From an uncultured Candidatus Saccharibacteria bacterium (GTDB taxonomy: Bacteria; Patescibacteriota; Minisyncoccia; UBA9983), in assembly GCA_964438405.1 (NCBI GenBank), contig CAYTKF010000001.1:18860-82859 (forward strand): 64,000 nucleotides of DNA, given 5' to 3'. How positions within the stretch are numbered: position 1 is the first letter of the stretch; every line of letters starts with the position of its first letter. Under the pieces are notes generated by a model. It was not told where the DNA came from and made no database searches. It saw only the letters and a list, made by a program, of their open reading frames with translations. A program made the position numbers and the translations under genes. Of the stretch, positions 14,291-60,140 are shown in pieces.

Positions 14291-14311
14291 CCCCGAGGTT
14301 TAACCTCGGGG
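14291..14311 (+). terminator. Hairpin ccccgaggtt-t-aacctcgggg after the preceding CDS (no clean T-tract)
   Basis: Perfect 10-bp inverted repeat 23 nt after the stop codon. Confidence 0.35.
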
Positions 14312-19834: not shown

Positions 19835-21352
19835 ATGTCTAAGTACCCACCTTTTTTAGAGAAAAATATAAAGTTAGGGCTTAATAAAGAGCTATTAAAA
19901 ATCATGCCCCGGGAGCTTATCCTAGAGTTTGATGCTTTTGTTTTTGAAAAAGATTCTGATTCTGGCCTTGTAAAAATTGCTGCGGTAAACCCGGAAAATA
20001 TTGCCTTGAGGCATTATGCAAAAGAAAAGTTCGGCGACAAAGTTGAATGGTTCAGCGCCCAAAAGGAGGACGTAGATTTTATATTAAAAAATCTTAAACG
20101 GGATTTTAAAAACGATATTTTATTTTTAGCCAACAACGTCACCGAGAACAATGAAAATATTACAAAAATTGTTGACGGCATTATAGAATACGCTCTTGCC
20201 CAAAAGGCAAGCGACATTCACATTGAACCATCGAGAAATGAATTTCTTGTGCGATTTAGAATCGACGGCGCCATGCATCAGATGTTAAATTTGCCACGCA
20301 GTATATATCAGGCGCTGGTTGCCCGCATAAAAATAATCGCCAACTTAAGAATTGATGAGTACCGACGCCCCCAGGACGGCCGTATTGAACCCGAAAATTT
20401 TCCCGATATTTCACTCCGCACTTCCATTATACCAACTCTTTTTGGGGAAAAGATCGCCATGCGTATTCTTGACGACTCGCAAAAAGATATTTTGATTGAG
20501 GAACTGGGATTTTCTAAAGAACAAAAAAATATAATTTTACAAAACATAGAAAAACCGTTCGGCATGATTGTTGCCTCGGGCCCCACTGGTTCAGGAAAAA
20601 CTACAACGCTCTATGCTCTTTTACAAATTTTTAAAAAAGACGGATTTAATATTTCTACGCTTGAAGATCCGATTGAATATGTATTACATGGAGTAAACCA
20701 GATTCAGATTAATCTTCAGGTAGGGCTTACTTTTCCAATAGGCCTCCGCTCCCTTTTGAGACAGGACCCGGACATTATGATGGTGGGGGAGATCAGAGAT
20801 ACAGAAACCGCCTCCATGGCTGCCGATGCCGCAATGACAGGCCACATAGTTTTTACCACCCTCCACACCAATGACGCAGCTTCCGCCTTCACCCGTTTTT
20901 TGGAAATGGGGGTTGATGATTTTGTTGTTTCAAGCACGATTAATCTTGTCATTGCCCAACGCCTTGTCCGCAAAATCTGTAATAATTGCGCAGAAAAAAA
21001 AATGCTGGATAAAATAACCATAAAAAAGATTAAAGAACGCAAAGATATCATGGAGGCTCTTCAGGAAAAACAAATTGGATCCCTTAATAAATTTGAGGAG
21101 ATGACTTTTCGCCAAGGCAGGGGATGCGACCTTTGTTTTCAAACAGGATATCTGGGCCGTATCGGGATTTTTGAGCTGTTGACTCCTAATAAAGAAATAC
21201 ATGATTTAATACTGAGCCATAAATCATCGGAAGCCATAAGAGCGGCGGCGGAAAAAAATGGTTTCCGCGACATGATTACCGATGGAATTGACAAAGTATT
21301 TTTGGGAATCACCACTTTTGAAGAGGTTTTGCGGGTCACAAAAAATATTTAG
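19835..21352 (+). CDS. pilB: Type IV pilus / type II secretion assembly ATPase (PilB/GspE family)
   Basis: Walker A ASGPTGSGKTTTLYALL, Asp box and His box (TTLHTND), and C-terminal tetracysteine CNNC...CDLC. Confidence 0.85.
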   Translation: MSKYPPFLEKNIKLGLNKELLKIMPRELILEFDAFVFEKDSDSGLVKIAAVNPENIALRHYAKEKFGDKVEWFSAQKEDVDFILKNLKRDFKNDILFLANNVTENNENITKIVDGIIEYALAQKASDIHIEPSRNEFLVRFRIDGAMHQMLNLPRSIYQALVARIKIIANLRIDEYRRPQDGRIEPENFPDISLRTSIIPTLFGEKIAMRILDDSQKDILIEELGFSKEQKNIILQNIEKPFGMIVASGPTGSGKTTTLYALLQIFKKDGFNISTLEDPIEYVLHGVNQIQINLQVGLTFPIGLRSLLRQDPDIMMVGEIRDTETASMAADAAMTGHIVFTTLHTNDAASAFTRFLEMGVDDFVVSSTINLVIAQRLVRKICNNCAEKKMLDKITIKKIKERKDIMEALQEKQIGSLNKFEEMTFRQGRGCDLCFQTGYLGRIGIFELLTPNKEIHDLILSHKSSEAIRAAAEKNGFRDMITDGIDKVFLGITTFEEVLRVTKNI

Positions 21353-21359
21353 AAAAATT

Positions 21360-22568
21360 ATGGCCGTATTTTCATATAAATTAATAACCCAAAATGGCCA
21401 GATTCAAACAGGCTCTATTTCTGCGCTTACAAAAAGGGGGGCCGAAAAAACACTCACTAAAGACGATTCTATAATTATTTTTATTTCAACCAAAGATCAC
21501 TTCTGGCAGAAACAAATAAATCTTCCCTGGAAGAATTTTTCTTCAACGGAAAAAATAAACTTTTTTCGCGACCTCTCGATGATGATTTCTTCCGGGCTTT
21601 CAATTGTTGAGGCCTTAACTCTTTCGTTTGAAGAGATAAAAAATAATAAAGTAAAAGAAACAATAAAAACAATAGCCAATAACACAAAAAACGGTCAGAG
21701 ATTATCTAAATCAATGGCACAATTTCCGAAATATTTTCCGCAGGATATCGTGGAAACGGTTAATATGGGAGAATTATCAGGCGAGCTCAGCAAGGCGCTC
21801 GGACGCATTGCAAACGACCTAGAAAAAAATGTTGAAATAAAAAGAAAGATTACGGGCGCATTAATGTATCCGGGAATCATTATTTCAATAATGATTATTG
21901 TTGTCACAATTTTATTGTTATATGTTATACCGCAAATCGGAAAAATATACGAAGAGTCAAATATAGAGCTTCCTTTTCTGACAAAAATACTGCTGGTTGT
22001 CGGCAACCTTCTAGCGTCCCATTTATATATCTTTTTGCTGGCATTGGCCGTTGTAATAATCATACCCATTCTTTTATTGAGGATAAAAAAAATACATTAT
22101 GCTTTTAATTATTTAATATTAAAACTGCCTGTTTTCGGAAATATCATTAAGGATTATAATCTGATCCTCTTTTTCCGCTCGATTGAATCTTTAATAAAAA
22201 GCGGAATTTCGCTGGTTGATTCCGTTAATATTGCAAAAAAAACCACTAAAAATGACGTTTATAAAAAGGCTTTTGACACAGTCCACCCCATACTGCTTCG
22301 TGGCATACCTCTTTCCGATATTATGAAACGCTTTCCTTTTTTATTTGCACCCCAAACGCAAAAAATAATAGAAGTTGGCGAAAAGACGGGCAAATTAGAT
22401 AATTCATTCAGCCGGATAACAAACTATTACGAGAACGTATTGGAGCATAAAACAAAAACTATGCTAGTTTTAATTGAGCCGGTATTAATGCTGGTTTTGG
22501 GAATTGTAGTCGGGGGATTGGCACTCTCTATTTTTATGCCGATTTATCAAATCGTCAACGTATTTTAA
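21360..22568 (+). CDS. pilC: Type IV pilus inner-membrane platform protein (PilC/GspF family)
   Basis: Two GspF-type repeats with TM helices. Internal ATG at 21360 chosen because the tracked ORF start at 21282 overlaps pilB. Confidence 0.8.
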   Translation: MAVFSYKLITQNGQIQTGSISALTKRGAEKTLTKDDSIIIFISTKDHFWQKQINLPWKNFSSTEKINFFRDLSMMISSGLSIVEALTLSFEEIKNNKVKETIKTIANNTKNGQRLSKSMAQFPKYFPQDIVETVNMGELSGELSKALGRIANDLEKNVEIKRKITGALMYPGIIISIMIIVVTILLLYVIPQIGKIYEESNIELPFLTKILLVVGNLLASHLYIFLLALAVVIIIPILLLRIKKIHYAFNYLILKLPVFGNIIKDYNLILFFRSIESLIKSGISLVDSVNIAKKTTKNDVYKKAFDTVHPILLRGIPLSDIMKRFPFLFAPQTQKIIEVGEKTGKLDNSFSRITNYYENVLEHKTKTMLVLIEPVLMLVLGIVVGGLALSIFMPIYQIVNVF

Positions 22569-22570
22569 AT

Positions 22571-23005
22571 ATGAAAAAGACAAATGGTTTTTCTCTTATT
22601 GAAATAATTACCGTTATCGGTATTATGGGCGTAGTTGCAGCCACTGGATTTATGACCTTTAGGGGAATTAAAGATGATATTATTTTGGAGCAAACAAAGA
22701 CAACCTTGGTTTGGGCTTTAGAGGAGGCCCGGAACCGGGCCGCAACCGGATTTGGACAAAATAAACAAGGAGTTCATATAGAAGAAAATAAAATTGTGAT
22801 TTTTGAAGGAGATGAATATGTTGATGGCGAGGGAGAAGAAATAATTTTTCCTCCAACCATATCAACCGACCAAACTAACGGCAATATTATATTTAACCGG
22901 ATTAGCGCATCAGTTAACACGGCTGCCACAATTATTATTAATAATATAAAAGGCAGTACAAAAATTATTAATATTACTTCAGATGGAAAAATCATCGCTC
23001 AATAA
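22571..23005 (+). CDS. Type IV pilin / pseudopilin (prepilin N-terminal cleavage-methylation domain)
   Basis: MKKTNG|FSLIEIITVIGIMGVVAA matches the class III signal G|F(S/T)LIE. Confidence 0.7.
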   Translation: MKKTNGFSLIEIITVIGIMGVVAATGFMTFRGIKDDIILEQTKTTLVWALEEARNRAATGFGQNKQGVHIEENKIVIFEGDEYVDGEGEEIIFPPTISTDQTNGNIIFNRISASVNTAATIIINNIKGSTKIINITSDGKIIAQ

Positions 23006-23495
23006 AAAAGGGGGTTTTGGAATAATAGAGGTCGTTGTTGGAATTACTCTTGCCTCCGTATTTATGACAGCCTTCGCGGCATTAACCGTGCAAACTATCA
23101 AACTTAATCGCGCCAACACAAACGAACTCAAGGCAAATATATATTTAAGAGAACTTATTGAGATTGCGAAAGATCTTGAACAGTCAGAAGACTGGAATAT
23201 ATTAACCGATTATCCTTGCCAAGAATCTTTAGGTCGGGTCTGTTATCCCAAAATTTCAAGTGGAAAATGGATTTTGACTACAGGCGCAGAATCACTTGAT
23301 AATGACATATATAATCGTTCGCTTACCATTGCCGATGTTTATCGGAACCAGCTTTCATTCCCCAATGAGATAGTGGCAAGCGGAGGCGTTTCTGACCCAA
23401 ACACAAAAAAAATAATTGCAAAAATTTTATGGAGTGATGGCAGCCATCCCCCAATGATACTTGAGACATATGTTTATAATTATATCGCGCCGTAA
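22983..23495 (+). CDS. Pilin-like protein (minor pilin candidate)
   Basis: KGGFGIIEVVVGITLASVFM prepilin-like N-terminus. Confidence 0.55.
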   Translation: MEKSSLNKKGGFGIIEVVVGITLASVFMTAFAALTVQTIKLNRANTNELKANIYLRELIEIAKDLEQSEDWNILTDYPCQESLGRVCYPKISSGKWILTTGAESLDNDIYNRSLTIADVYRNQLSFPNEIVASGGVSDPNTKKIIAKILWSDGSHPPMILETYVYNYIAP

Positions 23496-23500
23496 TCTTT

Positions 23501-23962
23501 ATGTTTATAAAAAAATTATTTAAAAACAATAATTTCGGATTCACCATAATAGAAACAATTGTTGCGCTCGGCCTGGGCGTTCTTGTCGTGACCGCTGTTA
23601 CGACCATTGTTCTTCCCGGACTCAAGAACATACGCGCCGCCACTCAAACCGAAAGACTGCATGCAAACGCGGTATTTTTGCTGAACAATTTAACTTATTG
23701 GATAAAACAAGCCGAAGATCTCAATACGCCTAGCCCGTCTGTACTTGAAATTAAACTTTCCGATTCTTCGGTAAAAATTATTAAAAAAGACGGCGACAAT
23801 ATAACAGCTGACAATATTCCCCTTAATAATAATGATGTTAAGATAATAGAGCTTAATTTCACAAAGATGGCAAAATCGGTGAAAATTGATTTGGTTATTA
23901 AAACTGAAAAAGGAGAAACATTTTCCATTAAAACAACCATTGCACAAAGAAACAAACTTTAA
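23501..23962 (+). CDS. Pilin-like protein (minor pilin candidate)
   Basis: NNFGFTIIETIVALGLGVLVV prepilin-like N-terminus. Confidence 0.55.
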   Translation: MFIKKLFKNNNFGFTIIETIVALGLGVLVVTAVTTIVLPGLKNIRAATQTERLHANAVFLLNNLTYWIKQAEDLNTPSPSVLEIKLSDSSVKIIKKDGDNITADNIPLNNNDVKIIELNFTKMAKSVKIDLVIKTEKGETFSIKTTIAQRNKL

Positions 23963-23966
23963 AATT

Positions 23967-25049
23967 ATGCCATCTTATAAAAAAGACAAAGGAATAATAA
24001 GTTTAATTACTATATTGACTGTAGGTCTTTTCTCGTTAAGCGCCGTAATAATAAGCGAAATGGGCGCACTTAAGGAACTGGCAAAAAATCGCAATAATAT
24101 GATGGGAGAGAAATCTTTTTATGCCGCCGAGACCGCTACCAGAGAGGGGGCTTATCAATATCTAAACAACACTTCCTATTCGGGAGGTGCCCTGCTCTCT
24201 ATTAATAATGTCTTAGACAGCTCTAATATTGTTGATGATGACTCTTTGCCCTGGCCGTATGTGGAGATAATCGGGGCCGCGGAAAACGAGACCAATCATC
24301 GCGAAGTCATACATAAAATTACTGTGTTCCCCGAGGGCCAGGCTTTTAGTTATGCCGTCTACTCGCAAAACAGCATTAGTTTTGGCGGAAACGCCACTGT
24401 AAATGGAGATATTTTTGCCAACAACAACATAAATTTTAACGGCCAAAGCGCAACAATTAACGGAAACGCCTTTTCTATTAACGAAATAGATGACACAGAT
24501 AATATAAATGGAGAGGCCGTTTTGGTGAAATCAGTAATTTCAGCGCCCCAAATTGACACTCAGTCCTATAAAGACGTTGCCGTATTTGCAGAAACATTTT
24601 TCACTTCTTCAAGCGACGCAGAAAACTATATTAACAACAATACAAGAACAGCGGTTGTATTTGTTGAAGACAGTAATGAGACAAAAATACATGGCACTAA
24701 TACCAAACTATCAGGAAGTTTGGTTGTAAGTGGCGATTTGGAAATCAGCGGAGGCACTTATACGGCAACTGATAATTACGCCGCAATTATAGTTGGCGGC
24801 AATCTTAAAATATCAGGAGGGGCGATAATCAACGGAATAGTTTATGTGTCAGGTTCTACAGCATTTGGTGGAGGAAATAATGTAATTAATGGTTCGCTTC
24901 TTTCTACAAATGGGGCAAGTATTGCAGATATCACAGGCAGTACTGTTATTAATTTTGATCCAGACAATATAGGAGCTTGGCAGGATCTTGAGGGGTTGAT
25001 AACCACCTCTACTCAAGACCCAGAAATTGTTGATTGGCTAGAACGATAA
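23967..25049 (+). CDS. Pilus-associated protein with an N-terminal pilin-like hydrophobic segment and beta-helix-like repeats
   Basis: Internal start MPSYKKDKGIISLITILTVGLF. Repetitive GGNATVNGDIFANNNINFNGQSATINGNAFSIN. Confidence 0.4.
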   Translation: MPSYKKDKGIISLITILTVGLFSLSAVIISEMGALKELAKNRNNMMGEKSFYAAETATREGAYQYLNNTSYSGGALLSINNVLDSSNIVDDDSLPWPYVEIIGAAENETNHREVIHKITVFPEGQAFSYAVYSQNSISFGGNATVNGDIFANNNINFNGQSATINGNAFSINEIDDTDNINGEAVLVKSVISAPQIDTQSYKDVAVFAETFFTSSSDAENYINNNTRTAVVFVEDSNETKIHGTNTKLSGSLVVSGDLEISGGTYTATDNYAAIIVGGNLKISGGAIINGIVYVSGSTAFGGGNNVINGSLLSTNGASIADITGSTVINFDPDNIGAWQDLEGLITTSTQDPEIVDWLER

Positions 25050-25075
25050 AGACTTGACAAATAATTATAAGGGTT

Positions 25076-25106
25076 TAATTTGATAAATAGAGATTTAATC
25101 AAATTA
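25076..25106. promoter_or_regulatory. Near-perfect 13/14-bp-arm inverted repeat upstream of the giant adhesin gene (candidate operator)
   Basis: taatttgataaat-agag-atttaatcaaatta; the arms are reverse complements with a 1-nt indel. Confidence 0.35.
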
Positions 25107-25131
25107 TTAACAATAAAAACCGATAATTTAT

Positions 25132-28100
25132 ATGAAAAATTTTAATTCCCGGGCAGCTAACGCAATTTTACTGGCCGTATCAATGGTCGTTTACATAATA
25201 GCGCCGGTTTTGTCATTTGCTCCGCAAGTATCTTATGCGACCCAACCTGTCAGTAGTTATATTGTTTCTATAGATACTATTAATGACGATCCTCCGACAG
25301 AGGCCTGTCTTGTTAGTCCTGTGACAATTATCGGAAGCGGACAAGTTATAAACGGACAAGGAAGCGGTTCTGATCAATACCACATTGAGATTAATTGGGG
25401 AGACGGCACCCTAGAAAATGGAATTGTAATTAATCCAACACCGGATCCGGGAGGCGACAAGAAAACTTTTTCCTTTAGCTATACCGCAACTCACAGTACT
25501 TCAGTTACCAGCACACAAATTAAAGTACGTCTCTATCACGGTGCTCCCCCGGGCAACGACGCCCAAGCTGATGCCGTGATAAGTGTCTCTGTCTGCGTTG
25601 CTCCACCCACCACCGCGGTTCTCAATGTTAAAAAGATTGTCGTTAATAATAACGGTGGTACAGCTACGTCCTCAGACTTCACCCTGCGGTTAAAATCAGC
25701 CACCACAACTAACGATATCAGCGGAAGCCCTTTTTCCGGTTCAACCGCGGGTAAAGATTTTATTTTGAGCCCAGGCCCTTATGTTGCCGGCGAAGATGCT
25801 TTTTCGGGCTATAGTTCAGCAATTACCGGTAATTGCGCCGCAGACGGAACCATTACTCTGTCAGCCGGACAAAATTATTCCTGCACCATTACCAATACTG
25901 AATTACCACCAACTCCCACTACTGGTTCTATTTCCGGTAAAAAGTTTGAAGATTTGAACGGCGACCACGTGCGAACCAATGAGACTACTGATCCTGACTT
26001 GCCCGACTGGACAATCCGGCTTGATTTGATTGGCAGTTCTGACGCTCCGAATTGCGAATCGGGTCAAACTCCAGTAGCCTCGGTCAATGGAGAGTTCTGC
26101 GAAGTTTTGACTGATTCTAATGGTAATTACAAATTTATTAATCTGCTTCCGGGCGACTACATAGTTTCCGAAGTTTTACAGGATGGCTGGACACAGACAA
26201 GACCAAATGCAGATTACGGAGGCCAAGGTAGACAAGCTGATGGTACTTACCATTTAACTCTTTCTGCCGGACAGAATATTAATGACAGACAGTTTGGCAA
26301 CAAACAATCGCCCACTACCGGCAGTCTACAGGTTGATAAAGTTGCAATTGGCGGAGACAGCATGTTTAGTTTTACCGGAGATAACGGAATAACTGGTTTT
26401 GACATTACAACCAGCGGAGGTACTGGCAGTCTTACAATCAGCGATCTTCTTCCGGGAGTTTATAATATTTTTGAAACAATTAAGGCTGGTTGGGACGAAT
26501 TAAATGATTGCACTAACGTCAATGTGACTGTTGGTAATACAACGAATTGCACTTTTACCAACACAGCGCGCGGCTCTATTACGGTTCACAAAAATGTGGT
26601 TGCACCGGACGGACAAACTGATGTTTCAGACAACCATAATTTTACCGTGACGCTTAATGGCGATAATTCCCAAACACTTAACGAAACAACATCGGTATCT
26701 TACACAGACCTTATTCCTAATCAGCAATATACTGTTACAGAAGATATGGATTCTGATTACAGCCAAGTTTCTATCACTGGCGATTGCGTTTCTGACGGCA
26801 CCATCACATTGAATCCCGGACAGGACGCTGTCTGCACCATCACCAATGCGCAAAAACAGGGGACACTTACAGTCATTAAACATGTAATCAATCACGGCAT
26901 TGGCACTGCTGACGCAAATGATTTTTCGTTCATAATAAATGATGGACAGCCAACAGCGTTTACAGCAGACGAAGGAAGTCTTGAAGGACAAAATACAATT
27001 GCAGTTGACCCGGGAACTTACACAGTGAGCGAACCTTCAGTGCAGGGCTATGCCGCAAGTTATAACAATTGCACCGACGTGGCGATTCCAAGCAACGGTT
27101 CTGCCACCTGCACCATTACCAACAGCGATATTCCTCCGGGCGACGGCGCAATTACTGTTTTTAAGACTTTGCCGAATGACAATGGAGGCACAGCAACGGT
27201 TGCTGATTTCCCGCTCTGGATTACAGATTCTGATGACCCGCAAAATCCCATCTCTGCTGCAAACGGCCAGGCAAATTTCTTAGCGGCTGGCCATAATTAT
27301 ACTGTAAGCGAAACAAATCCTAATGAAATTCTTGGTTATAACCAAAGCATCAGCTGTTATGACGGGCAAACTCCGCTTGACGGCAGTACAATCACTGTTG
27401 TTGAAAACCATGTTTACACTTGCACCATTACCAATGACGACATGCCTGTTTCTTTGACGCTTAATAAAACAGTGATCACTGACAACGGGGGCACAGCCCA
27501 GGCATCAGACTGGACTCTTACTGCAAAAGGACCGATAACCTTAAGCGGTGTTGGCCCGACAGTTTCCAGCACAACTCTTTCAGCAGGCACTTATACGCTT
27601 TCTGAATCAAGCGGACCGACTGGCTATACAGCAAGTAATTGGTCATGTCAGGGAGGAACCTTAAATGGCGATGTTCTTACGCTTGTCCTTGGCGACAATG
27701 CAACCTGCGGTATTACTAATGACGACCAGCCCAGTTATATTTCCGGCGCGAAGTTTGAAGATGTTAATTACAATAAAATTTGGGACGATGGAGAAACTGG
27801 AATTGTTGGTTGGGTAATAAATCTGTTTAAAGAACAGCAGCTTGTTGCCTCTACAACCACTGGCGAAGTTGGAACTTATCAGTTTACTAATGTTTCTCCC
27901 GGAACATACACACTCACGGAAACAGCACAGGACGGATGGATTCAGACAACTGACGCACCTGCTCCAATAGATATGACTCAAGGCACAACTTCTGCAAATA
28001 ATAATTTTGGCAATTACAAAAAGATTGTCATATCAAATGAAAATTCTCAAGATCCAACAGAAACTTCTGTTGTCATAACTTGGGATACTGACAGACCGGC

Positions 28101-28755
28101 AACTTCACGCGTAATTTATGACACAGTTTCGCACGCAATTCTTGGCGATGCGCCGAATTACGGATACGCGTTTTCAACGATTGAGGACACTGCAACAACA
28201 ACCAGCCATTCTGTTACAATAACCGGTTTGGCGGCCGGCACTACTTATTATTACCGCGTAATTTCTCACGCTTCGCCCGAATCAGTGAGTTCTGAACACA
28301 ACTTTTCTACTGTCCAACAGCAAACTCCGCCTTCTAGTGGACCAGTTGGCGGCGGTGGTGGAGGTGGTGGAGGTGGTGGAGGTAATGGACCTGTTGGAGA
28401 TCTTTTATCTTTAACAACCCCTCCAACTCCCACAAATCCTCCAGTTAGCGGACCGGTTATAACCACAACTGGCGCAGGAGAAGAAAATCCAACTCCTCCA
28501 ACACCTCCAGTTCCAACAGGAGAAGGAGCAGGAATTACAGGAGAAATCGGCGCTAACACAGGTGGCGCAACAACTAGCGAAGAAACTGGCAATAATCTTG
28601 CCGCAGCAGCTGCAAGCCAGGAAAACGGTAGAAGCTTTGGCAGTATGCTCGCCTCTGTCTTTGGCGCAATCGGAAGCTGGTGGTGGCTGCTCCTGCTCAT
28701 CATTATCTTAATCATCATCTGGCTCATAAAACGTTCTCTGGACAAAAAGAATTAA
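25132..28755 (+). CDS. Giant cell-surface adhesin-like protein: signal peptide, repeated SdrD/Cna-B-like and Ig-like domains, FN3-like domain, poly-Gly/Pro-Thr stalk, C-terminal TM anchor
   Basis: 1207 aa. Recurring GKKFEDLNGDH...NGNYKF.NLLPGDY.VSE..GW modules (Cna B/SdrD-B-like), G14 run, PTPPTP stalk, C-terminal WWWLLLLIIILIIIWLIKR. Confidence 0.6.
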   Translation: MKNFNSRAANAILLAVSMVVYIIAPVLSFAPQVSYATQPVSSYIVSIDTINDDPPTEACLVSPVTIIGSGQVINGQGSGSDQYHIEINWGDGTLENGIVINPTPDPGGDKKTFSFSYTATHSTSVTSTQIKVRLYHGAPPGNDAQADAVISVSVCVAPPTTAVLNVKKIVVNNNGGTATSSDFTLRLKSATTTNDISGSPFSGSTAGKDFILSPGPYVAGEDAFSGYSSAITGNCAADGTITLSAGQNYSCTITNTELPPTPTTGSISGKKFEDLNGDHVRTNETTDPDLPDWTIRLDLIGSSDAPNCESGQTPVASVNGEFCEVLTDSNGNYKFINLLPGDYIVSEVLQDGWTQTRPNADYGGQGRQADGTYHLTLSAGQNINDRQFGNKQSPTTGSLQVDKVAIGGDSMFSFTGDNGITGFDITTSGGTGSLTISDLLPGVYNIFETIKAGWDELNDCTNVNVTVGNTTNCTFTNTARGSITVHKNVVAPDGQTDVSDNHNFTVTLNGDNSQTLNETTSVSYTDLIPNQQYTVTEDMDSDYSQVSITGDCVSDGTITLNPGQDAVCTITNAQKQGTLTVIKHVINHGIGTADANDFSFIINDGQPTAFTADEGSLEGQNTIAVDPGTYTVSEPSVQGYAASYNNCTDVAIPSNGSATCTITNSDIPPGDGAITVFKTLPNDNGGTATVADFPLWITDSDDPQNPISAANGQANFLAAGHNYTVSETNPNEILGYNQSISCYDGQTPLDGSTITVVENHVYTCTITNDDMPVSLTLNKTVITDNGGTAQASDWTLTAKGPITLSGVGPTVSSTTLSAGTYTLSESSGPTGYTASNWSCQGGTLNGDVLTLVLGDNATCGITNDDQPSYISGAKFEDVNYNKIWDDGETGIVGWVINLFKEQQLVASTTTGEVGTYQFTNVSPGTYTLTETAQDGWIQTTDAPAPIDMTQGTTSANNNFGNYKKIVISNENSQDPTETSVVITWDTDRPATSRVIYDTVSHAILGDAPNYGYAFSTIEDTATTTSHSVTITGLAAGTTYYYRVISHASPESVSSEHNFSTVQQQTPPSSGPVGGGGGGGGGGGGNGPVGDLLSLTTPPTPTNPPVSGPVITTTGAGEENPTPPTPPVPTGEGAGITGEIGANTGGATTSEETGNNLAAAAASQENGRSFGSMLASVFGAIGSWWWLLLLIIILIIIWLIKRSLDKKN

Positions 28756-28787: not shown

Positions 28788-29192
28788 ATGTCTTACCAAG
28801 AGGCAGTTAGTTTTTTAAGAAGATTGGATAAGGAAATAAGAATATGCCATCCAGGCACCGGCAAAGAGATGCCCTGCGATGAAGTGCTTCGGGACCTTTC
28901 TTGGGAAGAATGGAAGACTGTAGAAGAAATTATCAAAAAACACAAACTTCCGTGTTCTCTTGTGAGCGGTCCGTATGGATTTTCTTTGATAATATATTCT
29001 TTTAAAAAAGATATATTGCTTCTTATTAAAAATGTCCAGTTTCCATTTTTGTCCGCAAAACGCGGTTTTAACGGTCAGCTGGATACACTTCATAGGATTT
29101 CTCCGCTGACCCACAACCAGCAAAATATTGACCTTCTTGCGGCTCTGCATTTTGAACCGCAAAATCTCAACCCTTTATCTTACGCCTATTAG
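28788..29192 (+). CDS. Hypothetical protein
   Basis: 134 aa. Good RBS (ggaggtg) 7 nt upstream. No recognisable motif. Confidence 0.35.
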   Translation: MSYQEAVSFLRRLDKEIRICHPGTGKEMPCDEVLRDLSWEEWKTVEEIIKKHKLPCSLVSGPYGFSLIIYSFKKDILLLIKNVQFPFLSAKRGFNGQLDTLHRISPLTHNQQNIDLLAALHFEPQNLNPLSYAY

Positions 29193-29213
29193 TTATTATT
29201 TTTCCAATTTTTC

Positions 29214-29248
29214 GGGCGCTGTGCGAAGCAATGCACAGGCCCTTTTTT
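29214..29248 (+). terminator. Intrinsic terminator
   Basis: gggcgctgtgc-gaagcaat-gcacaggccc followed by tttttt. Confidence 0.65.
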
Positions 29249-29304
29249 GTTATCCACAGGACAGCTTGTTTAAGTTTTGAAAATGTTTAAGTTCAAAAAT
29301 AGAA

Positions 29305-29428
29305 GTGACCCGGTTCAGCTTGAGCACGTGAAGTACAGCGTGAGCTGGACAATGGGTCCGGCTGGGAGTGCCCTCGTAATCCCCCAGCCGCAATCATCCG
29401 AGCCCCGATGAAACTGTCGGGGCTTTCA
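29305..29428 (+). ncRNA. Unidentified GC-rich structured RNA element (three hairpins plus terminator). Either a regulatory 5' leader/attenuator of proS or an independent small RNA
   Basis: Local GC is about 58% against AT-rich flanks. Helices gacccg/tgggtc, cagct/agctg, cggctggg/cccagccg. Terminal hairpin agccccga-tgaaactg-tcggggct followed by a U-rich tract. Candidate promoter ttgaaa-17-tagaag at 29277..29305. Confidence 0.4.
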
Positions 29429-29483
29429 TATTTCAATATTTTTTCGTTTGACTCTGCGTTAATTTCTTATTATTATAAGGTTA

Positions 29484-30725
29484 ATGTTGCAATCAAAATT
29501 ATTTGCCAAAACCAGAAAAGAAGCTCCCAAAGACGAGACCGCTGTTAACGCGCAGCTTCTTATCCAAGCAGGTTTTGTAAACAAGGATTCTGCAGGAGTT
29601 TATACTTTTTTGCCGCTTGGCTTAAGAGTTCTCTCAAAAATAGAAAATATTGTCCGCGAAGAAATGAATGCCATCGGTGGCCAGGAAATGCTGATGTCAG
29701 CGCTTCAGCCAAAAGAAAATTGGCAGGCAACTACTAGATGGGAAGGCCTTGATATTTTATTTAAGGTAATCTCGCGCCACGGCTCCGAATATGCGCTGGG
29801 TCCGACCCATGAAGAAATTGTCACTCCCGCTGCATTAAATATAATCAGCTCTTATAAAGACCTGCCTCTGGCTGTTTATCAGATCCAGACAAAATTCCGC
29901 GACGAACCGCGCGCAAAATCCGGTCTGCTTCGAACGCGGGAATTCCGGATGAAAGATTTATACAGTTTTCATAAAGACGAAAAAGATTTAGATAAATATT
30001 ACAATAAAATCGCAATCCCAGCCTATCAAAAAATTTATAAACGCATGGGATTGGAGGCTTTTTTGACAGAAGCAGATGGAGGCACTTTCAGCAAATTTTC
30101 CCATGAATTTCAGGTGGAAATTGAGAACGGAGAGGATATTATTTATATTTGCAATCCGCCAGCTGGCGGATGCGGTCTGGCTAAGAACAAGGAGATTTTT
30201 AAAGACAACGATGAATGCACTAATTGCGGAAAAACAGAATGGCGCGAGGCAAACGCATCCGAGGTGGGCAATATTTTCCCGCTTAAAAATAAATATTCAA
30301 AAAGTTTTAATTTAATTTATACAGCAGAAGACGGAACTAAAAAAGATGTTATTATGGGTTGCTACGGCATGGGCACTTCGCGCTTAATGGGAGTTTTAGC
30401 AGAAAGATTTCATGACCAGGATGGCATTATCTGGCCGGAAAGTGTTGCACCGTTTAAGGTTCATCTTATAGAACTTAATAATGCGTCTGCGAAAAATATT
30501 TACGAAGATTTAATTAAGCATGGCGTGGAAGTTTTATATGACGACAGAGAATTGAGCCCCGGAGAAAAATTCGCTGACGCTGACTTAATCGGCATTCCGT
30601 ATCGTGTGGTTGTGAGCGAAAAAACAGCAGAACAAAATAAGTTTGAGGTTAAAAAAAGAGATGAGGACAAAATAAAATTAGTAGATAAAGAAGAACTTTT
30701 TCGTATCATTCGCATGAATTCGTAG
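29484..30725 (+). CDS. proS: Prolyl-tRNA synthetase, minimal form without the editing (INS) domain; contains a Cys4 insertion
   Basis: N-terminal region (AKTRKEAPKDETAVNAQLLIQAGFV...PLGLRVLSKIENIVREEM) resembles ProRS. 413 aa. Insertion CNPPAGGCGL...ECTNCGK. Confidence 0.8.
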   Translation: MLQSKLFAKTRKEAPKDETAVNAQLLIQAGFVNKDSAGVYTFLPLGLRVLSKIENIVREEMNAIGGQEMLMSALQPKENWQATTRWEGLDILFKVISRHGSEYALGPTHEEIVTPAALNIISSYKDLPLAVYQIQTKFRDEPRAKSGLLRTREFRMKDLYSFHKDEKDLDKYYNKIAIPAYQKIYKRMGLEAFLTEADGGTFSKFSHEFQVEIENGEDIIYICNPPAGGCGLAKNKEIFKDNDECTNCGKTEWREANASEVGNIFPLKNKYSKSFNLIYTAEDGTKKDVIMGCYGMGTSRLMGVLAERFHDQDGIIWPESVAPFKVHLIELNNASAKNIYEDLIKHGVEVLYDDRELSPGEKFADADLIGIPYRVVVSEKTAEQNKFEVKKRDEDKIKLVDKEELFRIIRMNS

Positions 30726-40183: not shown

Positions 40184-41464
40184 ATGATTAAAACTATTTT
40201 AAAAAATATTGTTGTGTTTTTTTTGAGAATTGAGGCCAAACTCATACTTAAAAAATATAAGCCGAAGATAGTGGCTGTTACCGGAAGCGTTGGCAAAACT
40301 TCTTTAAAAGACGCCATTGCTCTTGTTCTGGGTTCTAAATTCAATGTGCGCAAAAGCGAAAAAAGCTATAACAGCCAGCTGGGCGTGCCTCTTACCATTA
40401 TCGGCGCCAAAAGCGCCTGGAATAATGTTTTTGGCTGGCTGGAAATTTTAATAAAGGGGCTTGCGCTTATTTTTAAAACACAACACTATCCCCAGTGGCT
40501 TGTTCTGGAAATGGGCGTTTCAAGGCCCGGCGACATGGATTTTCTTGTTTCTCTTGCAAAACCAGACGTTGCGGTTATCACAACATTTGGCGAAATGCCG
40601 GTTCATGTGGAATTTTTTAACGACCCCGACGGTTTGAAAAAAGAAAAATCAAAAATTATAGACGGCCTTGATGAAAACGGCTGCGCCATTTTAAATGGGG
40701 ACGACAAACTTGTATATAATTTAAAAAGCAAAACAAAAGCCAAAACTATTATCTATGGATTTGACGATAATCAATTTGACCTTTCCGCTTCCAATTACAA
40801 TATTTCTCCGGACGGCATCAATTTTAAGCTTGATTACAAAAGCAATATAATTCCTGTGAGAATGAACAATGCTCTTGGCAGACAATTTGTTTACACTGCG
40901 CTTGGCGCCATTGCGGTTGGGCTTTCGCAGAATATAAATTTGGTTGAGGCGGTGGAATCGCTCTCAAAATTCAAACCACCGTTAGGAAGAATGAATTTAA
41001 TAGACGGAGTGAAAAATTCTTTCATAATTGATGATACTTATAATTCTTCGCCCATTGCCGTTAGCGCGGCATTAAATGTTCTTAAGGAATTGCCTGCCGA
41101 AAGAAAAATTGCGGTTTTAGGCGATATGCTGGAGCTGGGAAAATTTACCATTGACGAGCATAAAAAAATCGGCGGATTAATAAAAGAAAAGGGCGCTGAC
41201 TTACTTTTTACAGTAGGACCGCGGGCGAAATTTATTGCTGACGAGGCAATAACAACAGGATTTCGTGGAAGCAATGTTTTTTCTTTTTCAACTCCTGACG
41301 AGGCAAAAATTCTGCTTCAGGAAAAAATAAAAGAAGGGGATTTGATTTTAGTAAAAGGGTCTCAATCAATGAGAATGGAAAAAATAATCGAGGAAATAAT
41401 GGCGCACCCGGAGCAAAAAAACGAACTTCTTGTGCGCCAGGATAAAGAATGGTTAAATAGATAG
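40184..41464 (+). CDS. murF: Mur ligase, most like UDP-MurNAc-tripeptide D-alanyl-D-alanine ligase MurF
   Basis: VAVTGSVGKTSLKDAI P-loop and Mur ligase central/C-terminal domains; 426 aa. Confidence 0.65.
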   Translation: MIKTILKNIVVFFLRIEAKLILKKYKPKIVAVTGSVGKTSLKDAIALVLGSKFNVRKSEKSYNSQLGVPLTIIGAKSAWNNVFGWLEILIKGLALIFKTQHYPQWLVLEMGVSRPGDMDFLVSLAKPDVAVITTFGEMPVHVEFFNDPDGLKKEKSKIIDGLDENGCAILNGDDKLVYNLKSKTKAKTIIYGFDDNQFDLSASNYNISPDGINFKLDYKSNIIPVRMNNALGRQFVYTALGAIAVGLSQNINLVEAVESLSKFKPPLGRMNLIDGVKNSFIIDDTYNSSPIAVSAALNVLKELPAERKIAVLGDMLELGKFTIDEHKKIGGLIKEKGADLLFTVGPRAKFIADEAITTGFRGSNVFSFSTPDEAKILLQEKIKEGDLILVKGSQSMRMEKIIEEIMAHPEQKNELLVRQDKEWLNR

Positions 41465-41469
41465 TGTAA

Positions 41470-41541
41470 GGCCCTTTCGTCTAGCGGCTAGGACATCGCC
41501 CTCTCACGGCGGAAACACGGGTTCAATTCCCGTAGGGGTCA
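41470..41541 (+). tRNA. tRNA-Glu (anticodon CUC)
   Basis: GGCCCUUUCGUCUAGCGGCUAGGACAUCGCCCUCUCACGGCGGAAACACGGGUUCAAUUCCCGUAGGGGUCA. Cloverleaf with anticodon loop CUCUCAC, T-loop GGUUCAAUUCC. Close to E. coli tRNA-Glu. CCA not encoded. Confidence 0.8.
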
Positions 41542-41543
41542 TA

Positions 41544-42329
41544 ATGAAAAATTTTAAAACAATTTTAACAGTTGCAATAACAGCAATTTTGTTTTTGGGA
41601 ATTTTTTATCCCAAGATTTTAAATCCTTCGTATGAACAAGGATTGCCAGTAACGGGAAGTCCGTTTAGCAATCTTAATCTTGAAGCGAAATCTGCCATTG
41701 TTTTTGACTATATTAATAACAGGCCGATTTTTGAATTGAATCCGGAAGCCCAGCTTCCGCTCGCAAGCCTCACCAAAATTATGACTGTTATTACCGCCAA
41801 AGAATTAATGCCTGATGGAAACTTTAAAAATCTTTCAGATAAAATAAACAAAGCATTAATTATCTCGTCAAACGAGGCTGCAACAGCTATTGCAATTGAA
41901 ACGCAAAATTTTTTGGGCCCGAATGATTTTGTGGGAGAGATGAATAAAAAGGCGGAAGAACTCGGTCTGAACCAGACTTATTTCTTGAACGAAACCGGAC
42001 TTGATATAAATGATAATATTGCCGGCGCTTATGGTTCTGCTTCTGATGTAATAAAAATTTTGACTTATGCAATAAAAAACGACTCTGATATTTTTGAGCA
42101 GACAACAGCGGACAGCGATTACAACACCAATCCCTATGCCACCAGCACCACTTTGCTTGTGGCGTCAAAAACCGGGCTGACAGATTTGGCAGGCGGAAAT
42201 TTAGCAATTGTTTTTGAGGCGGGCATGGGACGGCCGATCGCTATAGTTGTCCTTGGCTCGTCGCAGGAGGGCAGATTCACAGACGTTAAAAAATTAATGG
42301 AGGCAACGTTTAATTATTTAAAATTATGA
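41544..42329 (+). CDS. D-alanyl-D-alanine carboxypeptidase-like serine hydrolase (S11/PBP5-like)
   Basis: LPLASLTKIMT (SxxK) and SNE (SxN-like); signal anchor. Confidence 0.6.
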   Translation: MKNFKTILTVAITAILFLGIFYPKILNPSYEQGLPVTGSPFSNLNLEAKSAIVFDYINNRPIFELNPEAQLPLASLTKIMTVITAKELMPDGNFKNLSDKINKALIISSNEAATAIAIETQNFLGPNDFVGEMNKKAEELGLNQTYFLNETGLDINDNIAGAYGSASDVIKILTYAIKNDSDIFEQTTADSDYNTNPYATSTTLLVASKTGLTDLAGGNLAIVFEAGMGRPIAIVVLGSSQEGRFTDVKKLMEATFNYLKL

Positions 42330-43387: not shown

Positions 43388-43447
43388 ACCTCACCCCTAA
43401 CCCCTCTCCTTAATAGGAGAGGGGTGCTGTAGGCGGGGTGAGGTTTT
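43388..43447. terminator. Long bipartite hairpin terminator between convergent genes
   Basis: acctcacccc..cccctctcc-ttaata-ggagagggg..cggggtgagg followed by tttt. A second hairpin gcccaccgccgaagcgggggc (43459..43482) is followed on the minus strand by a T-tract. Confidence 0.75.
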
Positions 43448-43501
43448 AGAAAACAAAAGGCCCACCGCCGAAGCGGGGGCTTAAAAACGTTACGAATTTG
43501 A

Positions 43502-47913: not shown

Positions 47914-48030
47914 TGCGTAACGAGTAATGCGTAATTTTACGGCTTTATTTAGCCGTATTTTTATTACATAAATTTTGACATTGACACTCATCGATTGAAC
48001 CTCAACGCTCCGAGCCTGACGTGATACAGG

Positions 48031-48066
48031 CCCCCGACCGTGAAAGCGCGTCGGGGTTTTTTCTTT
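48031..48066 (+). terminator. Intrinsic terminator after ftsW/rodA
   Basis: cccccgac-cgtgaaagcgc-gtcgggg followed by ttttttcttttt. Confidence 0.8.
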
Positions 48067-48101
48067 TTATAATCAAAAACAGAAATTAAAAAAATAAAAA
48101 A

Positions 48102-48139
48102 TTAACGTATTCACAACCGATCGGTCGCCAATGCGTTAA
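48102..48139. promoter_or_regulatory. 38-bp quasi-palindrome centred exactly on CGATCG (upstream flank of PaaX-like gene 2)
   Basis: ttaacgtattcacaacCGATCGgtcgccaatgcgttaa. ttaacg/cgttaa termini are exact inverted repeats, with 16-nt arms. Confidence 0.5.
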
Positions 48140-48176
48140 TTTAATGTTAAGATATAATTAAGAATAAAATATCATT

Positions 48177-48734
48177 ATGGCTATAAAAATAAAAAGCGAA
48201 ACGAAACAAAAAATTCTACTTTTGCTTTTGGCGGGTTTGGCGTTAGGAATGTCAAAAACACCCAAAAGATATTTTAAGGTACTGAAAACTATTCCCAAAG
48301 AATGGAAAGATATAAAAAGAAGACAATTATTGGATGCTGTCCGCGAATTTTATAACAATAGAATCGTTGATTATAAAGAACTAAATGATGGCACAGTAGA
48401 AGTTGTCTTAACAAAAGAGGGAAGAAAGAGAGCGTTAATTTTTAAAATTGACGAAATGGAAATTAAAAAACCAGATAAGTGGGATGGCAAATGGAGAATA
48501 GTTATTTTTGATATTCCGGAAAAGAAGAGGGCAGCCAGATTTGCATTAAGAAACAAACTTAAAGATCTTGGTTTTAAAGAATTACAGAAAAGCGTTTTTG
48601 TTCATCCTTACGAATGCGAGGATGAAATTGATTTTATTGTAGAAGTATTTGAAATTAGACCCTATGTAAAATTCTTAAGAACAGATTCTTTTACAAATGA
48701 TGAACAATTTAAATTAAAATTTAAGATTTATTAA
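48177..48734 (+). CDS. PaaX-family transcriptional regulator-like protein (paralog 2)
   Basis: KWDGKWRIVIFDIPEKKRAARFALRNKLKDLGFKELQKSVFVHPYE. N-terminal wHTH-like segment KQKILLLLLAGLALG. Confidence 0.5.
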   Translation: MAIKIKSETKQKILLLLLAGLALGMSKTPKRYFKVLKTIPKEWKDIKRRQLLDAVREFYNNRIVDYKELNDGTVEVVLTKEGRKRALIFKIDEMEIKKPDKWDGKWRIVIFDIPEKKRAARFALRNKLKDLGFKELQKSVFVHPYECEDEIDFIVEVFEIRPYVKFLRTDSFTNDEQFKLKFKIY

Positions 48735-54192: not shown

Positions 54193-54525
54193 ATGATTAT
54201 CAAAGAGAAAATTTCGAAGGAAGAATTTGATAAGCTTTTTAATGCTTTTTACGGCACGGTTTTAAAGATGACGGTTGATATAGAAAAAAATATTTTGTCA
54301 GCCGGATGCGAATTTCATATTGAATGTTCCGAAGAACTTGTGGAAAAAGAAAGTTCTGAACAAAAAAATCTCTGGGGCGCAAATCTCTATAGAAAAGATA
54401 TGTCAATTGATTATAATTCTCTTATTAACATCAAGCCGATGGAAAATAACAGGTCAATGGAAATTCAGGATTCAGCAATAAAACAAAGGGTTGAAAAAAT
54501 AATTAAAGATTTATTATGCAATTAG
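54193..54525 (+). CDS. Hypothetical protein
   Basis: 110 aa; overlaps the next ORF by 10 nt; no known motif. Confidence 0.3.
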   Translation: MIIKEKISKEEFDKLFNAFYGTVLKMTVDIEKNILSAGCEFHIECSEELVEKESSEQKNLWGANLYRKDMSIDYNSLINIKPMENNRSMEIQDSAIKQRVEKIIKDLLCN

Positions 54526-54785
54526 AACGCTGGAAAAAATTTTCAAAAGGACAGCAGATGGGAGCAATTGCCGCTGAGATTGCCCGCGCCAAAACTTGGC
54601 AGAATCAAGACCAAGAAAAATTTTTATCTGCCATCGAAAGGGGACTGGAACTTATTGATTCCTCTATAGATGATGATAAATGGCGCGGCTGGCGTTCAAT
54701 GCTTTTTGGTTTAAGAAATGAACTGGCTAATTTTTATTTAAATAATTCTTATAAAGATATTAATATTTTGTACACAGCCATTTGA
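54516..54785 (+). CDS. Hypothetical protein
   Basis: 89 aa, helical, Trp-rich (WRGWRSMLFGLRNELANFYL). Confidence 0.3.
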   Translation: MQLERWKKFSKGQQMGAIAAEIARAKTWQNQDQEKFLSAIERGLELIDSSIDDDKWRGWRSMLFGLRNELANFYLNNSYKDINILYTAI

Positions 54786-54828
54786 CAACTTTTATCTCTT
54801 TTGCTATCATCTAAATACAACAAAATAA

Positions 54829-55044
54829 ATGGCAGATAGGTCTGAAAAAACAGCTATAGGGACTGTGATCGAGGCGCTGCCGAACGCCTCTTTCCGCGTG
54901 CGTCTGGATGACGGTGCGGAAATTTTTTCTTACCTGGCCGGCAAAATGCGCATGTATAAAATTAGAGTTCTTGTCGGCGATAAAGTGAAAATAGAAATGG
55001 ATCCATACGGCGGAACAAAAGGAAGAATAATTCAACGTTTATAA
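54829..55044 (+). CDS. infA: Translation initiation factor IF-1
   Basis: [59 protein letters not shown]. Confidence 0.9.
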
Positions 55045-55048
55045 TAAA

Positions 55049-55165
55049 ATGAAGGTTAAGGCGTCAATTAAAAAAATTTGCAGGGATTGCAAGATGGTCA
55101 AACGCAGGGGCTGTATTTATGTCATCTGCAAAAAAAATCCCAAGCATAAACAAAGACAGGGATAA
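55049..55165 (+). CDS. rpmJ: 50S ribosomal protein L36
   Basis: [38 protein letters not shown]; C-x2-C...C-x4-H zinc ribbon. Not in the ORF track because under 60 aa. Confidence 0.8.
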
Positions 55166-55373
55166 TAATGGCTTGGCCCACGATTTGGAGCCAAAGGCGA
55201 ACAAATTGTGGTTGCCAAACATTACCCCGCCCTCTCTTCTGTTATTTTTATCAAAGAGGACGGAATAAAAATTATGAAATATTTTGAAAAATTAAAAGTA
55301 AAAAATAAAAATGAGAGGGGCGGGGTGCTCAATTTTATAATTGCTCACTTCGCTCGCAAATAAAATTGGCATG
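55165..55373 (+). repeat. 209-bp intergenic element, copy 1 (rpmJ stop to rpsM start), containing a 101-nt stem-loop and a 29-codon sORF
   Basis: Identical to 55748..55956 by visual alignment over all 209 nt. Arms ccccgccctctc (55225) and gagaggggcgggg (55313). sORF 55274..55363 MKYFEKLKVKNKNERGGVLNFIIAHFARK with RBS aaagagga. Confidence 0.8.
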
Positions 55374-58613: not shown

Positions 58614-59064
58614 TATGGAGAAAGGCAAGCAGAAATCCGCCTCAACGGCGGACTCGCCGAAGAGGCGAGAATATTTTGAGGCAGCGGGAAGAAGAAAAAC
58701 ATCAGTGGCGCGGGTGAGAATTTTTCCAGATGCCGGCGGGAAAACTCTTTCCATCTCAATAAACGGAAAGGATTTTAAAACTTATCTGGCCACAAAAGAA
58801 CTCCAGCATATTGCTGAGGCGCCGTTTAAAAAAATAAAATTGACGCAGAAGCCGAGCGTAACTATAAAAGTTTCCGGCGGAGGCATTCATTCGCAGGCAG
58901 AGGCAATACGCCACGGCATCAGTCGGGCGCTCACAAAAATAGATAAAGAGTTGCGAAAAACTCTCAAACCCGAAGGATTCTTAAAGCGCGACCCACGCAT
59001 GAAAGAACGCAGAAAATTCGGCCTCAAAAAAGCAAGAAAAGCTCCACAATGGAGCAAGAGATAA
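58606..59064 (+). CDS. rpsI: 30S ribosomal protein S9
   Basis: GRRKTSVARVRIF...GGGIHSQAEAIRHGISRAL...C-terminal KKARKAPQWSKR. Confidence 0.9.
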   Translation: MNNMEKGKQKSASTADSPKRREYFEAAGRRKTSVARVRIFPDAGGKTLSISINGKDFKTYLATKELQHIAEAPFKKIKLTQKPSVTIKVSGGGIHSQAEAIRHGISRALTKIDKELRKTLKPEGFLKRDPRMKERRKFGLKKARKAPQWSKR

Positions 59065-59137
59065 AACAGTGTTATACTAAAATAGGTCGTTTAGGGTTAA
59101 GAATTAATTATTAATAATCTAATTAAATTATAATTTT

Positions 59138-59416
59138 ATGACAAATTTGCCGGGTTTTTTACAAACCCCGTTTATGGCGGGACTTTCAACGGGATTTTTT
59201 CTTGTCATTCTTGCCTGGTCTCTTTTTTGGAAGGGATGGGCTTTGTGGAGGTCTGCCAGAACAGGACATAAATGGTGGTTTGTGGCTTTGTTGGTAATTA
59301 ATACTGTCGGTATCTTAGAAATTCTTTATCTTTTTGTTTTCAGCAAAAAGGGAGGTGTTTCAATAATGAAGACAGAAGAAAGCAAAACCCCAGAGCCTCC
59401 AATGAGTACGATGTAA
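59138..59416 (+). CDS. Small membrane protein, hypothetical
   Basis: 92 aa; 2 TM, W-rich (LFWKGWALWRSARTGHKWWFVALLVI). Confidence 0.35.
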   Translation: MTNLPGFLQTPFMAGLSTGFFLVILAWSLFWKGWALWRSARTGHKWWFVALLVINTVGILEILYLFVFSKKGGVSIMKTEESKTPEPPMSTM

Positions 59417-59489
59417 AAAAACGTCCCGCCGCTCGCGAGCGACGGGATTTTCGTTTATTTAAAATAAATATTGTGTAAATTACAGCAAT

Positions 59490-59774
59490 ATGCTTAAATT
59501 AAAAAATGCTATTAATGCAATTAAAGAAGAAAATTATGATACGGCGATTAAAATTTGCCAAGATCTTAAAAATTTAGAAATAACAGAATTACTTAATAGA
59601 TATAACATTGATAAACATAGCCATGGTCATTATTTAAGACGCGGAGAAAGATTAAGCAAAGACGGATTTCCGCGTGAAAAAATTTTACAAATGATTGAGG
59701 CGGAAATAGAAAATCCTCCAAGGGTCATTTCAAGGGCTGATTGGACCGGTCATCATAAAGAAAGAAATCAATAG
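59490..59774 (+). CDS. Hypothetical protein
   Basis: 94 aa; no motif. Confidence 0.3.
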   Translation: MLKLKNAINAIKEENYDTAIKICQDLKNLEITELLNRYNIDKHSHGHYLRRGERLSKDGFPREKILQMIEAEIENPPRVISRADWTGHHKERNQ

Positions 59775-59796
59775 TTTTAAAATTAAAATAATTTGA

Positions 59797-59831
59797 GGCC
59801 GTTGGCGTGATATCCAACGGCCCCTGTTTCT
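59797..59831. terminator. Hairpin terminator shared with the end of a minus-strand frame
   Basis: ggccgttgg-cgtgatat-ccaacggcc followed by cctgtttct. Confidence 0.5.
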
Positions 59832-60105: not shown

Positions 60106-60140
60106 TTATCAATCTTATTTTTAATGTTATAATATTTATT

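Follow-up and report, generated by a model that had tools for sequence, protein, structure and literature searches.

The 64,000-nt window analyzed here (positions 18,860 to 82,859 of the forward strand of contig CAYTKF010000001.1, assembly GCA_964438405.1) comes from an uncultured Candidatus Saccharibacteria bacterium and has a GC content of 39.6%. Directly upstream of proS, the gene for prolyl-tRNA synthetase (ProRS), there is a short GC-rich element that folds into three hairpins, named H1, H2 and H3. The neighboring genes are all on the + strand. The operon that precedes the element, with its pilus-type genes, a 1207-aa SpaA_2 adhesin and a 134-aa open reading frame (ORF), is closed by the intrinsic terminator T1, and proS has a promoter of its own, P2. 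Our tentative reading, drawn from the sequence and its predicted fold, is that the element is a candidate for an orphan, lineage-specific and intrinsically terminated small RNA (sRNA) of ~120-125 nt, encoded on the + strand. The features of the locus are listed in Table 1. An initial annotation had recognized T1, the GC-rich block, its helices and the terminal hairpin with a U-rich tail; all of them are present, with some coordinates off by 2 nt (H1 starts at 29307, not at 29305).

Table 1. Features at the proS locus, with positions counted from the first nucleotide of the window
Feature	Position	Strand	Description
134-aa ORF	28788-29192		Last gene of the pilus-type cluster, before T1
T1 intrinsic terminator	29214..29248	+	GGGC-G-CUGUGC/GCACAG-GCCC, then U6; seen in the sequence and by terminator scan
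17-nt tandem duplication	29267..29300	+	TGTTTAAGTT-TTGAAAA / TGTTTAAGTT-CAAAAAT, directly 5' of H1
H1	29307..29358	+	52-nt hairpin; 19 bp (3 G-U), UGAG internal loop, AA bulge, apical loop GAAGUACA
H2	29359..29390	+	8-bp G+C stem CGGCUGGG/CCCAGCCG, 16-nt C-rich loop AGUGCCCUCGUAAUCC; z = -3.7
12-mer CCGCAATCATCC	29388..29399	+	Last 3 nt of H2 plus the 9-nt linker
Linker	Between H2 and H3	+	9 nt, single-stranded, CAAUCAUCC
H3 terminator hairpin	29400..29425	+	GAGCCCCGAU-GAAACU-GUCGGGGCUU; U-rich tail UCAUAUUUCAAUAUUUUUU to 29444
P2, proS promoter	29448..29476	+	TTGACT-17-TATTAT, 10/12 match to consensus; -10 ends 7 nt before ATG
proS	29484..30725	+	413-aa bacterial-type prolyl-tRNA synthetase; heads proS-mreB-mreC...

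The analysis confirmed that the GC-rich structured stretch is real and goes beyond chance. Its 119 nt on the + strand (29307-29425) contain 61.3% GC, against 35% in the left flank and 22% in the right flank. The mean for 119-nt stretches in the window is 39.5% (standard deviation 6.9), and no other one in the 64 kb equals that of the element, whose 80-nt GC maximum (0.65) is also the top value among all intergenic regions of the window. Folding was carried out with ViennaRNA and its significance was assessed against dinucleotide shuffles. The minimum free energy (MFE) of the + strand ranged from -59.7 to -61.1 kcal/mol, the lower value being that of a 146-nt segment (z = -5.68; 0 of 200 shuffles as stable). 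The segment 29307-29432 gave z = -5.5 and H1 plus H2 without the terminator gave z = -4.45, again with none of 200-300 shuffles equally stable. The predicted structure consists of three consecutive, independent hairpins followed by a U-rich tail; pair probabilities were at least 0.99 for the base and middle of H1, for H2 and for H3, and 0.54 for the apical stem of H1. The fold of the - strand is weaker (z = -3.4 to -4.5), with an H1 of -18.6 kcal/mol compared with -24.5 kcal/mol on the + strand. The 5-7 kcal/mol by which the + strand is favored stem from its five or six G-U pairs. When the MFE was scanned over both strands with a correction for GC, the element ranked about eighth of 2558 segments of 150 nt. 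It is thus an outlier but not unique, since it is outranked by ordinary strong terminators at 43.4 kb, and strong intergenic GC hairpins are common in this genome.

The outer helix of H1, GACCCG.../...UGGGUC, surrounds the helices GUUCAGCU/AGCUGGAC and GCACG/CGUGC, and the hairpin as a whole has z = -4.6 on the + strand versus -2.9 on the - strand. In the model of H2, the loop may contain a 3-bp inner stem that presents CCUC at its tip. H3 (10-11 bp with 6 G-C pairs; z = -4.7) was reported by the terminator scan. Its stem CCCCGA...UCGGGG recurs in the terminators at 14291 and 48032, and together with the U-rich tail it makes the end of the element similar to the genome's own terminators (14291-14311, 48032-48056 and 43390-43480). 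The element differs from these terminators in that H1 and H2, which are without U-tracts, are not needed for termination, and in that the unit exceeds every terminator of the window in length and in GC content.

Transcription of proS itself from P2 as a leaderless mRNA is well supported by the sequence, as the distance from the -10 box to the ATG indicates. The same arrangement, TTGACT-17-TATTAT-7-ATG, is found upstream of proS in the sister genome L082, whose proS and that of the window are reciprocal best matches (72% at the amino acid level), and many proS loci of the candidate phyla radiation (CPR) likewise have a -10 close to the ATG. Nearly no gene in the window has a Shine-Dalgarno sequence, and many of the genes that come first in an operon have TATAAT or TAAAAT 6-9 nt ahead of their start codon. 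Leaderless mRNAs therefore seem to be the usual mode of expression in this CPR genome. Examples of leaderless-type starts are those at 1787, 35241, 45214, 48875, 60141 and 61308. The initial annotation had offered the TTGACT-17-TATTAT site as an alternative that would make proS leaderless and the element an independent small RNA. The first half of this proposal is upheld by the 10/12 match, the layout at L082 and the habit of the genome, while the second is a plausible inference from the structure, GC content, strand asymmetry and terminator of the element. The evidence that proS and most operons are leaderless is a by-product of this work that is more solid than the sRNA candidate.

The case for an sRNA is built on the extreme local GC content, the G-U bias of the + strand and the self-contained character of the unit, which has T1 upstream, P2 downstream, static hairpins and its own terminator. 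Placed between T1, which closes the pilus-type operon, and the leaderless promoter of proS, the sRNA gene would be transcribed from G29307 or a position just 5' of it, and the weak -10-like AAAAAT at 29295-29300 may direct this start. While being synthesized, the RNA would fold into H1, right at the 5' end, and H2 with its C-rich loop, both of them static. The single-stranded linker CAAUCAUCC would follow, and the RNA would end at H3, a type of terminator used elsewhere in the genome. Such an RNA would act in trans, for example through the C-rich loop of H2 or through the linker. It would not control proS in cis, as this gene has a near-consensus promoter 20 nt past the terminator and would be translated from a leaderless mRNA.

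Small RNAs of the RsaE/RoxS type in Firmicutes are intergenic and terminated, with few stable hairpins and C-rich unpaired segments. The element resembles this type in its size class (~100-130 nt), in its intergenic position, in having few hairpins and a Rho-independent terminator, in the CCCUC of the H2 loop and in the short single-stranded stretch before the terminator. It differs in that it has no sequence or covariance-model likeness to RsaE or to any Rfam sRNA and is conserved within one population only. In addition, an anti-Shine-Dalgarno mechanism is doubtful for the element because the genome barely uses Shine-Dalgarno sequences. High-GC intergenic regions in AT-rich genomes are a classic signature of structured RNAs, and the GC-rich intergenic region approach makes use of it (PMC11109978, PMC6429828). 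The element would be flagged by this approach as the highest-GC intergenic region, as its candidates are. Such candidates become motifs only with several covarying representatives (PMC6429828, PMC11109978), and none was found for the element.

Several results weigh against the sRNA reading. A consensus promoter scan of the + strand upstream of H1 found no sigma-70-like site. The promoter that the initial annotation had considered plausible, TTGAAA-17-TAGAAG, is indeed present at 29277-29305, but its -10 is without the invariant final T, the scan did not report it, and the start that it predicts falls inside H1. The start at ~G29307 would depend on the AAAAAT at 29295-29300 serving as a -10, and this site is weak and has no -35. 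The tandem duplication in which it lies also overlaps TTGAAA-17-TAGAAG and includes an exact pair of 10-mers, at 29267 and 29284, for which the rest of the window shows no enrichment. At the other end of the element, the U-tract 3' of H3 is imperfect (UUUCAUAUUUC). L082 is without H1 and H3, and the H3 difference is a clean indel of ~28-31 nt in otherwise collinear sequence. Homologs were also missing from the searches. The element had no match by blastn-short and nhmmer among 80 proS loci of GTDB species, nor by blastn in distant mode in phage and plasmid collections. A single-sequence covariance model (R1, 37 bp) gave no match above 11 bits, with filters on or off, in the window, 32 CPR proS loci, 4 viral loci and 2 adhesin loci. 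Exact k-mer scans of metagenomes gave 0 matches for a 22-mer that covers the loop and stem of H2 and at least 120 for a 16-mer of the loop, those listed all being in unrelated contexts without flanking stems. Covariation was unavailable, as five assemblies of the same population (the window and four other contigs) are identical across the element. Finally, the only part of the element that is conserved outside this population, the 12-mer CCGCAATCATCC, may owe its conservation to a function of the DNA that is linked to the proS promoter, not to the RNA.

This 12-mer was found as an exact copy at L082 2936-2947, collinear with a conserved ATATTT and with the proS promoter. It is the sole part of the element common to the window and L082, and the chance of such a match was estimated at ~1e-3. 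Measured from the ATG, its center is at position -90.5 in the window and at -59.5 in the L082 sequence, a difference in spacing of 31 bp (about three helical turns) that results from the H3 indel. This pattern suggests a role at the DNA level, for example as a putative regulator site for the proS promoter, rather than as an RNA seed. Target matches to the reverse complement of the conserved linker, GGATGATTGCGG, were no more frequent in the window than expected by chance. At the position of H2, L082 has only a 4-bp mini-hairpin (CGGA-AUCUUA-UCCG), and its proS intergenic region is unstructured (z = +1.5).

Conservation of the helices at homologous proS loci was a test that the initial annotation had set for its proposal, and the helices are absent from L082, L083, L086, L088 and ~30 further CPR loci. 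In L083, L086 and L088, rseP lies directly upstream of proS and the intergenic regions (0-400 nt) contain unrelated hairpins instead of the element. Since the relatives carry unrelated hairpins in this place, hairpin turnover seems common upstream of proS. The rseP-proS gap of L083 (2437-2620) has an unrelated unit of its own, with TTGACT-18-TAAAAC, hairpins and a AACGGCUA...UAGCCGUU-U7 terminator; short terminated units upstream of proS may thus recur without sequence homology. In L086 (2935-3003), proS has a 5' untranslated region of ~55 nt after a TATAAT, and a long inverted repeat, UUAUCCAGUGC...GCACUGGAUAA, closes at the AUG; this is possibly a translational control hairpin.

These comparisons bear directly on the main rival explanation, namely that the element is functionless or insulating GC-hairpin DNA, a recent lineage-specific insertion or expansion that was acquired, decayed or arose de novo. 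As insulation, only H3 would act, as a back-up terminator that shields the leaderless proS promoter from read-through of the pilus operon. The absence of H1 and H3 from L082, where H3 corresponds to a clean indel of 28-31 nt, favors this explanation, as do the unrelated hairpins of the relatives in the same intergenic region and the lack of any promoter or homolog in the scans made. Moreover, synteny is broken just upstream of proS, where the 134-aa orphan ORF with its GGAGG looks foreign. However, T1 is already strong, so that a second terminator 150 nt further on is not obviously needed, and H1 and H2, without U-tracts, add nothing to termination while holding most of the GC and structure signal (z = -4.45). 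The GC peak of the 64 kb would be hard to keep without selection unless it were very recent, and the asymmetry in G-U pairs between the strands suggests that selection acts on the RNA. We regard functionless or insulating DNA as somewhat unlikely. A copy of a repeat or mobile element (REP/BIME/MITE/PATE-like), or the end of an integrated element, would also account for imperfect palindromes that are rich in GC and located in an intergenic region where synteny is broken. Pattern searches, blastn and the covariance model found a single copy in the 64 kb, no transposase is nearby, and the phage and plasmid collections gave no match. No terminal inverted repeats or target-site duplication were seen by eye in the flanks, where no dedicated repeat search was made. 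The likeness to the GC-hairpin region at 48.0 kb is confined to the terminator stem, and such an origin is highly improbable. If the element is transcribed, the RNA might instead come from the - strand, starting from TTGATT-16-AATAAT (29496 to 29469) and ending past the reverse complement of H1 and then ACUUCUAUUUUUG. The promoter-like site matches in 9/12 positions and is correctly placed, divergent from the proS promoter region; the fold of this strand is itself significant, and a U-rich run lies past its last hairpin. Against this, its stability is lower by the 5-7 kcal/mol given above, three pairs of H1 are lost where G-U turns into C-A, 6 nt separate the stem from the U-run, which the terminator scan does not report, and the neighboring genes all lie on the opposite strand. 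An RNA of this strand is quite unlikely.

Control of proS in cis was the function that the initial annotation had in mind, in the form of an attenuation leader with riboswitch or T-box-like logic. Transcripts would mostly stop at H3, and uncharged tRNAPro, ProRS or proline would permit read-through into proS. In position the element is like the T-box (RF00230), the E. coli pheST leader and the thrS operator, as it directly precedes an aminoacyl-tRNA synthetase gene of its own strand and ends in a terminator. Unlike these leaders, the element has no T-box sequence or Stem I, no match to RF00230 or any other Rfam family, no alternative between terminator and antiterminator and no run of cognate codons. 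Co-transcriptional (truncated) and constrained folds keep H1 and H2, and the sole alternative found for the 5' strand of the terminator is a 5-bp local hairpin of -3.9 kcal/mol, compared with -14 kcal/mol for H3 in context and -17.3 kcal/mol for H3 alone. In addition, the terminator is separated from the ATG by the 10/12 promoter, which is kept in L082, a genome without H1 and H3, and the element is absent from all of the 30+ related proS loci. A variant of this explanation is a pheST-type leader-peptide attenuator that uses a 42-codon ORF (29283-29411). This frame runs from just past T1 into the loop of H3 and has five Pro codons, three of them among the last 10 codons. The Pro codons are nevertheless scattered and do not form a run, by calculation ~27% of frames at this GC content would stay open over such a length, and a ribosome at the stop codon, in the loop of H3, would cover the terminator whatever the supply of proline. 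The peptide had no homologs among small proteins in 1.84 billion representatives, only repeat-protein noise. The proposal of an attenuation leader is therefore not borne out, given the missing Rfam match and competing fold, the intervening promoter and the unconserved helices; a leader is very unlikely, and the comparative data seem to have largely refuted it already. There is, finally, the most novel case, in which the element would be either the only sequenced example of a new cis-regulatory proS RNA or, equally, a very young de novo sRNA gene beside a sister that represents the state before insertion. The former would be a static leader whose terminator is overridden by uncharged tRNAPro or ProRS at H1/H2, as a second, regulated route beside the leaderless promoter. 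We consider this pair of possibilities highly improbable too.

The element is in no described RNA family. With Rfam 15 at gathering thresholds, the whole window gave only a tRNA-Glu (41470-41541). With lax filters and E <= 10, the region 29150-29550 gave no match on the + strand and low-scoring noise (STnc150 and asX2) on the - strand. ARAGORN detected the same tRNA-Glu only and none at the element. These results agree with the earlier impression that no obvious family such as T-box, SRP or tmRNA is present, and SRP RNA, 6S, tmRNA, RNase P and tRNA were ruled out by Rfam 15 and ARAGORN. Resemblances judged by eye to HDV-like ribozyme words, a hammerhead core, group II domain V, a tRNA 3' half, SRP helix 8 and attC were rejected as well, as the topology does not fit and Rfam gives no support. 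Viral scans gave chance matches only, and no proS-associated RNA motif was found in a literature search. If transcribed, the candidate sRNA would be among the very few described in Patescibacteria (CPR), a group whose regulatory RNAs are scarcely known. As a single orphan sequence from an uncultivated organism, it is of limited practical value. The comparison of the window with L082, in which promoter and 12-mer are kept and the hairpins are clean indels, is a rare opportunity to see the states before and after the origin of GC-rich hairpins and terminators in a streamlined, AT-rich genome.

The product of proS was assigned by NCBIfam TIGR00409 (427 bits; cutoff 306.7) and has the Pfam domains tRNA-synt_2b and HGTP_anticodon. 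It is a ProRS that lacks the INS editing domain, with TIGR00409 matched by both of its halves and the middle part of the profile missing. Short ProRS forms that resemble it are found in SAR86 and other streamlined lineages. Among 5.8 billion proteins searched, it is 100% identical to a protein of Parcubacteria group bacterium Athens0714_24, and the next-closest proteins are Doudnabacteria-like, with identities of at most 74%. Genes for MreB, MreC and a PBP2-like protein follow 3' of proS. Upstream, the type IV pilus-like cluster (19835-28755) encodes T2SSF/PilC, several pseudopilins with the N_methyl motif and adhesin-like proteins. The 1207-aa adhesin of this cluster has SpaA_2, SdrD_B and Pur_ac_phosph_N domains; its relatives are alike at the domain level only, and no RNA like the element was found at their loci. 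The 134-aa ORF has no relative but itself in the same 5.8 billion proteins. Its canonical GGAGG is among the very few Shine-Dalgarno sequences of the window, and this unusual feature hints that the ORF may be of foreign origin. A remnant of rseP, the usual upstream neighbor of proS, or of any neighboring protein was not found by tblastn.

Several other regions of the window stood out as well. There is a second unit of GC hairpin and terminator at 47914-48176 (GCCUG...CAGGC, then CCCCGAC...GUCGGGG-U6; z = -3.9), located after the terminator of a gene and before a PaaX/Cas2-like gene (48177-48734); only the terminator stem is common to this unit and the element. Two long stretches of ~0.8 and ~1.1 kb (54525-55341 and 59064-60141) have no ORF of at least 100 aa and no Rfam match. 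Two very strong GC hairpins (z = -6.9) occur at 43390-43480, one of them with a near-perfect stem of 11 bp inside a stem of 10 bp; the genes on either side appear to converge, and the hairpins probably terminate transcription in both directions. The tRNA-Glu(CUC) gene is placed tightly between the ORFs 40184-41464 and 41544-42329, with gaps of 5 and 2 nt.

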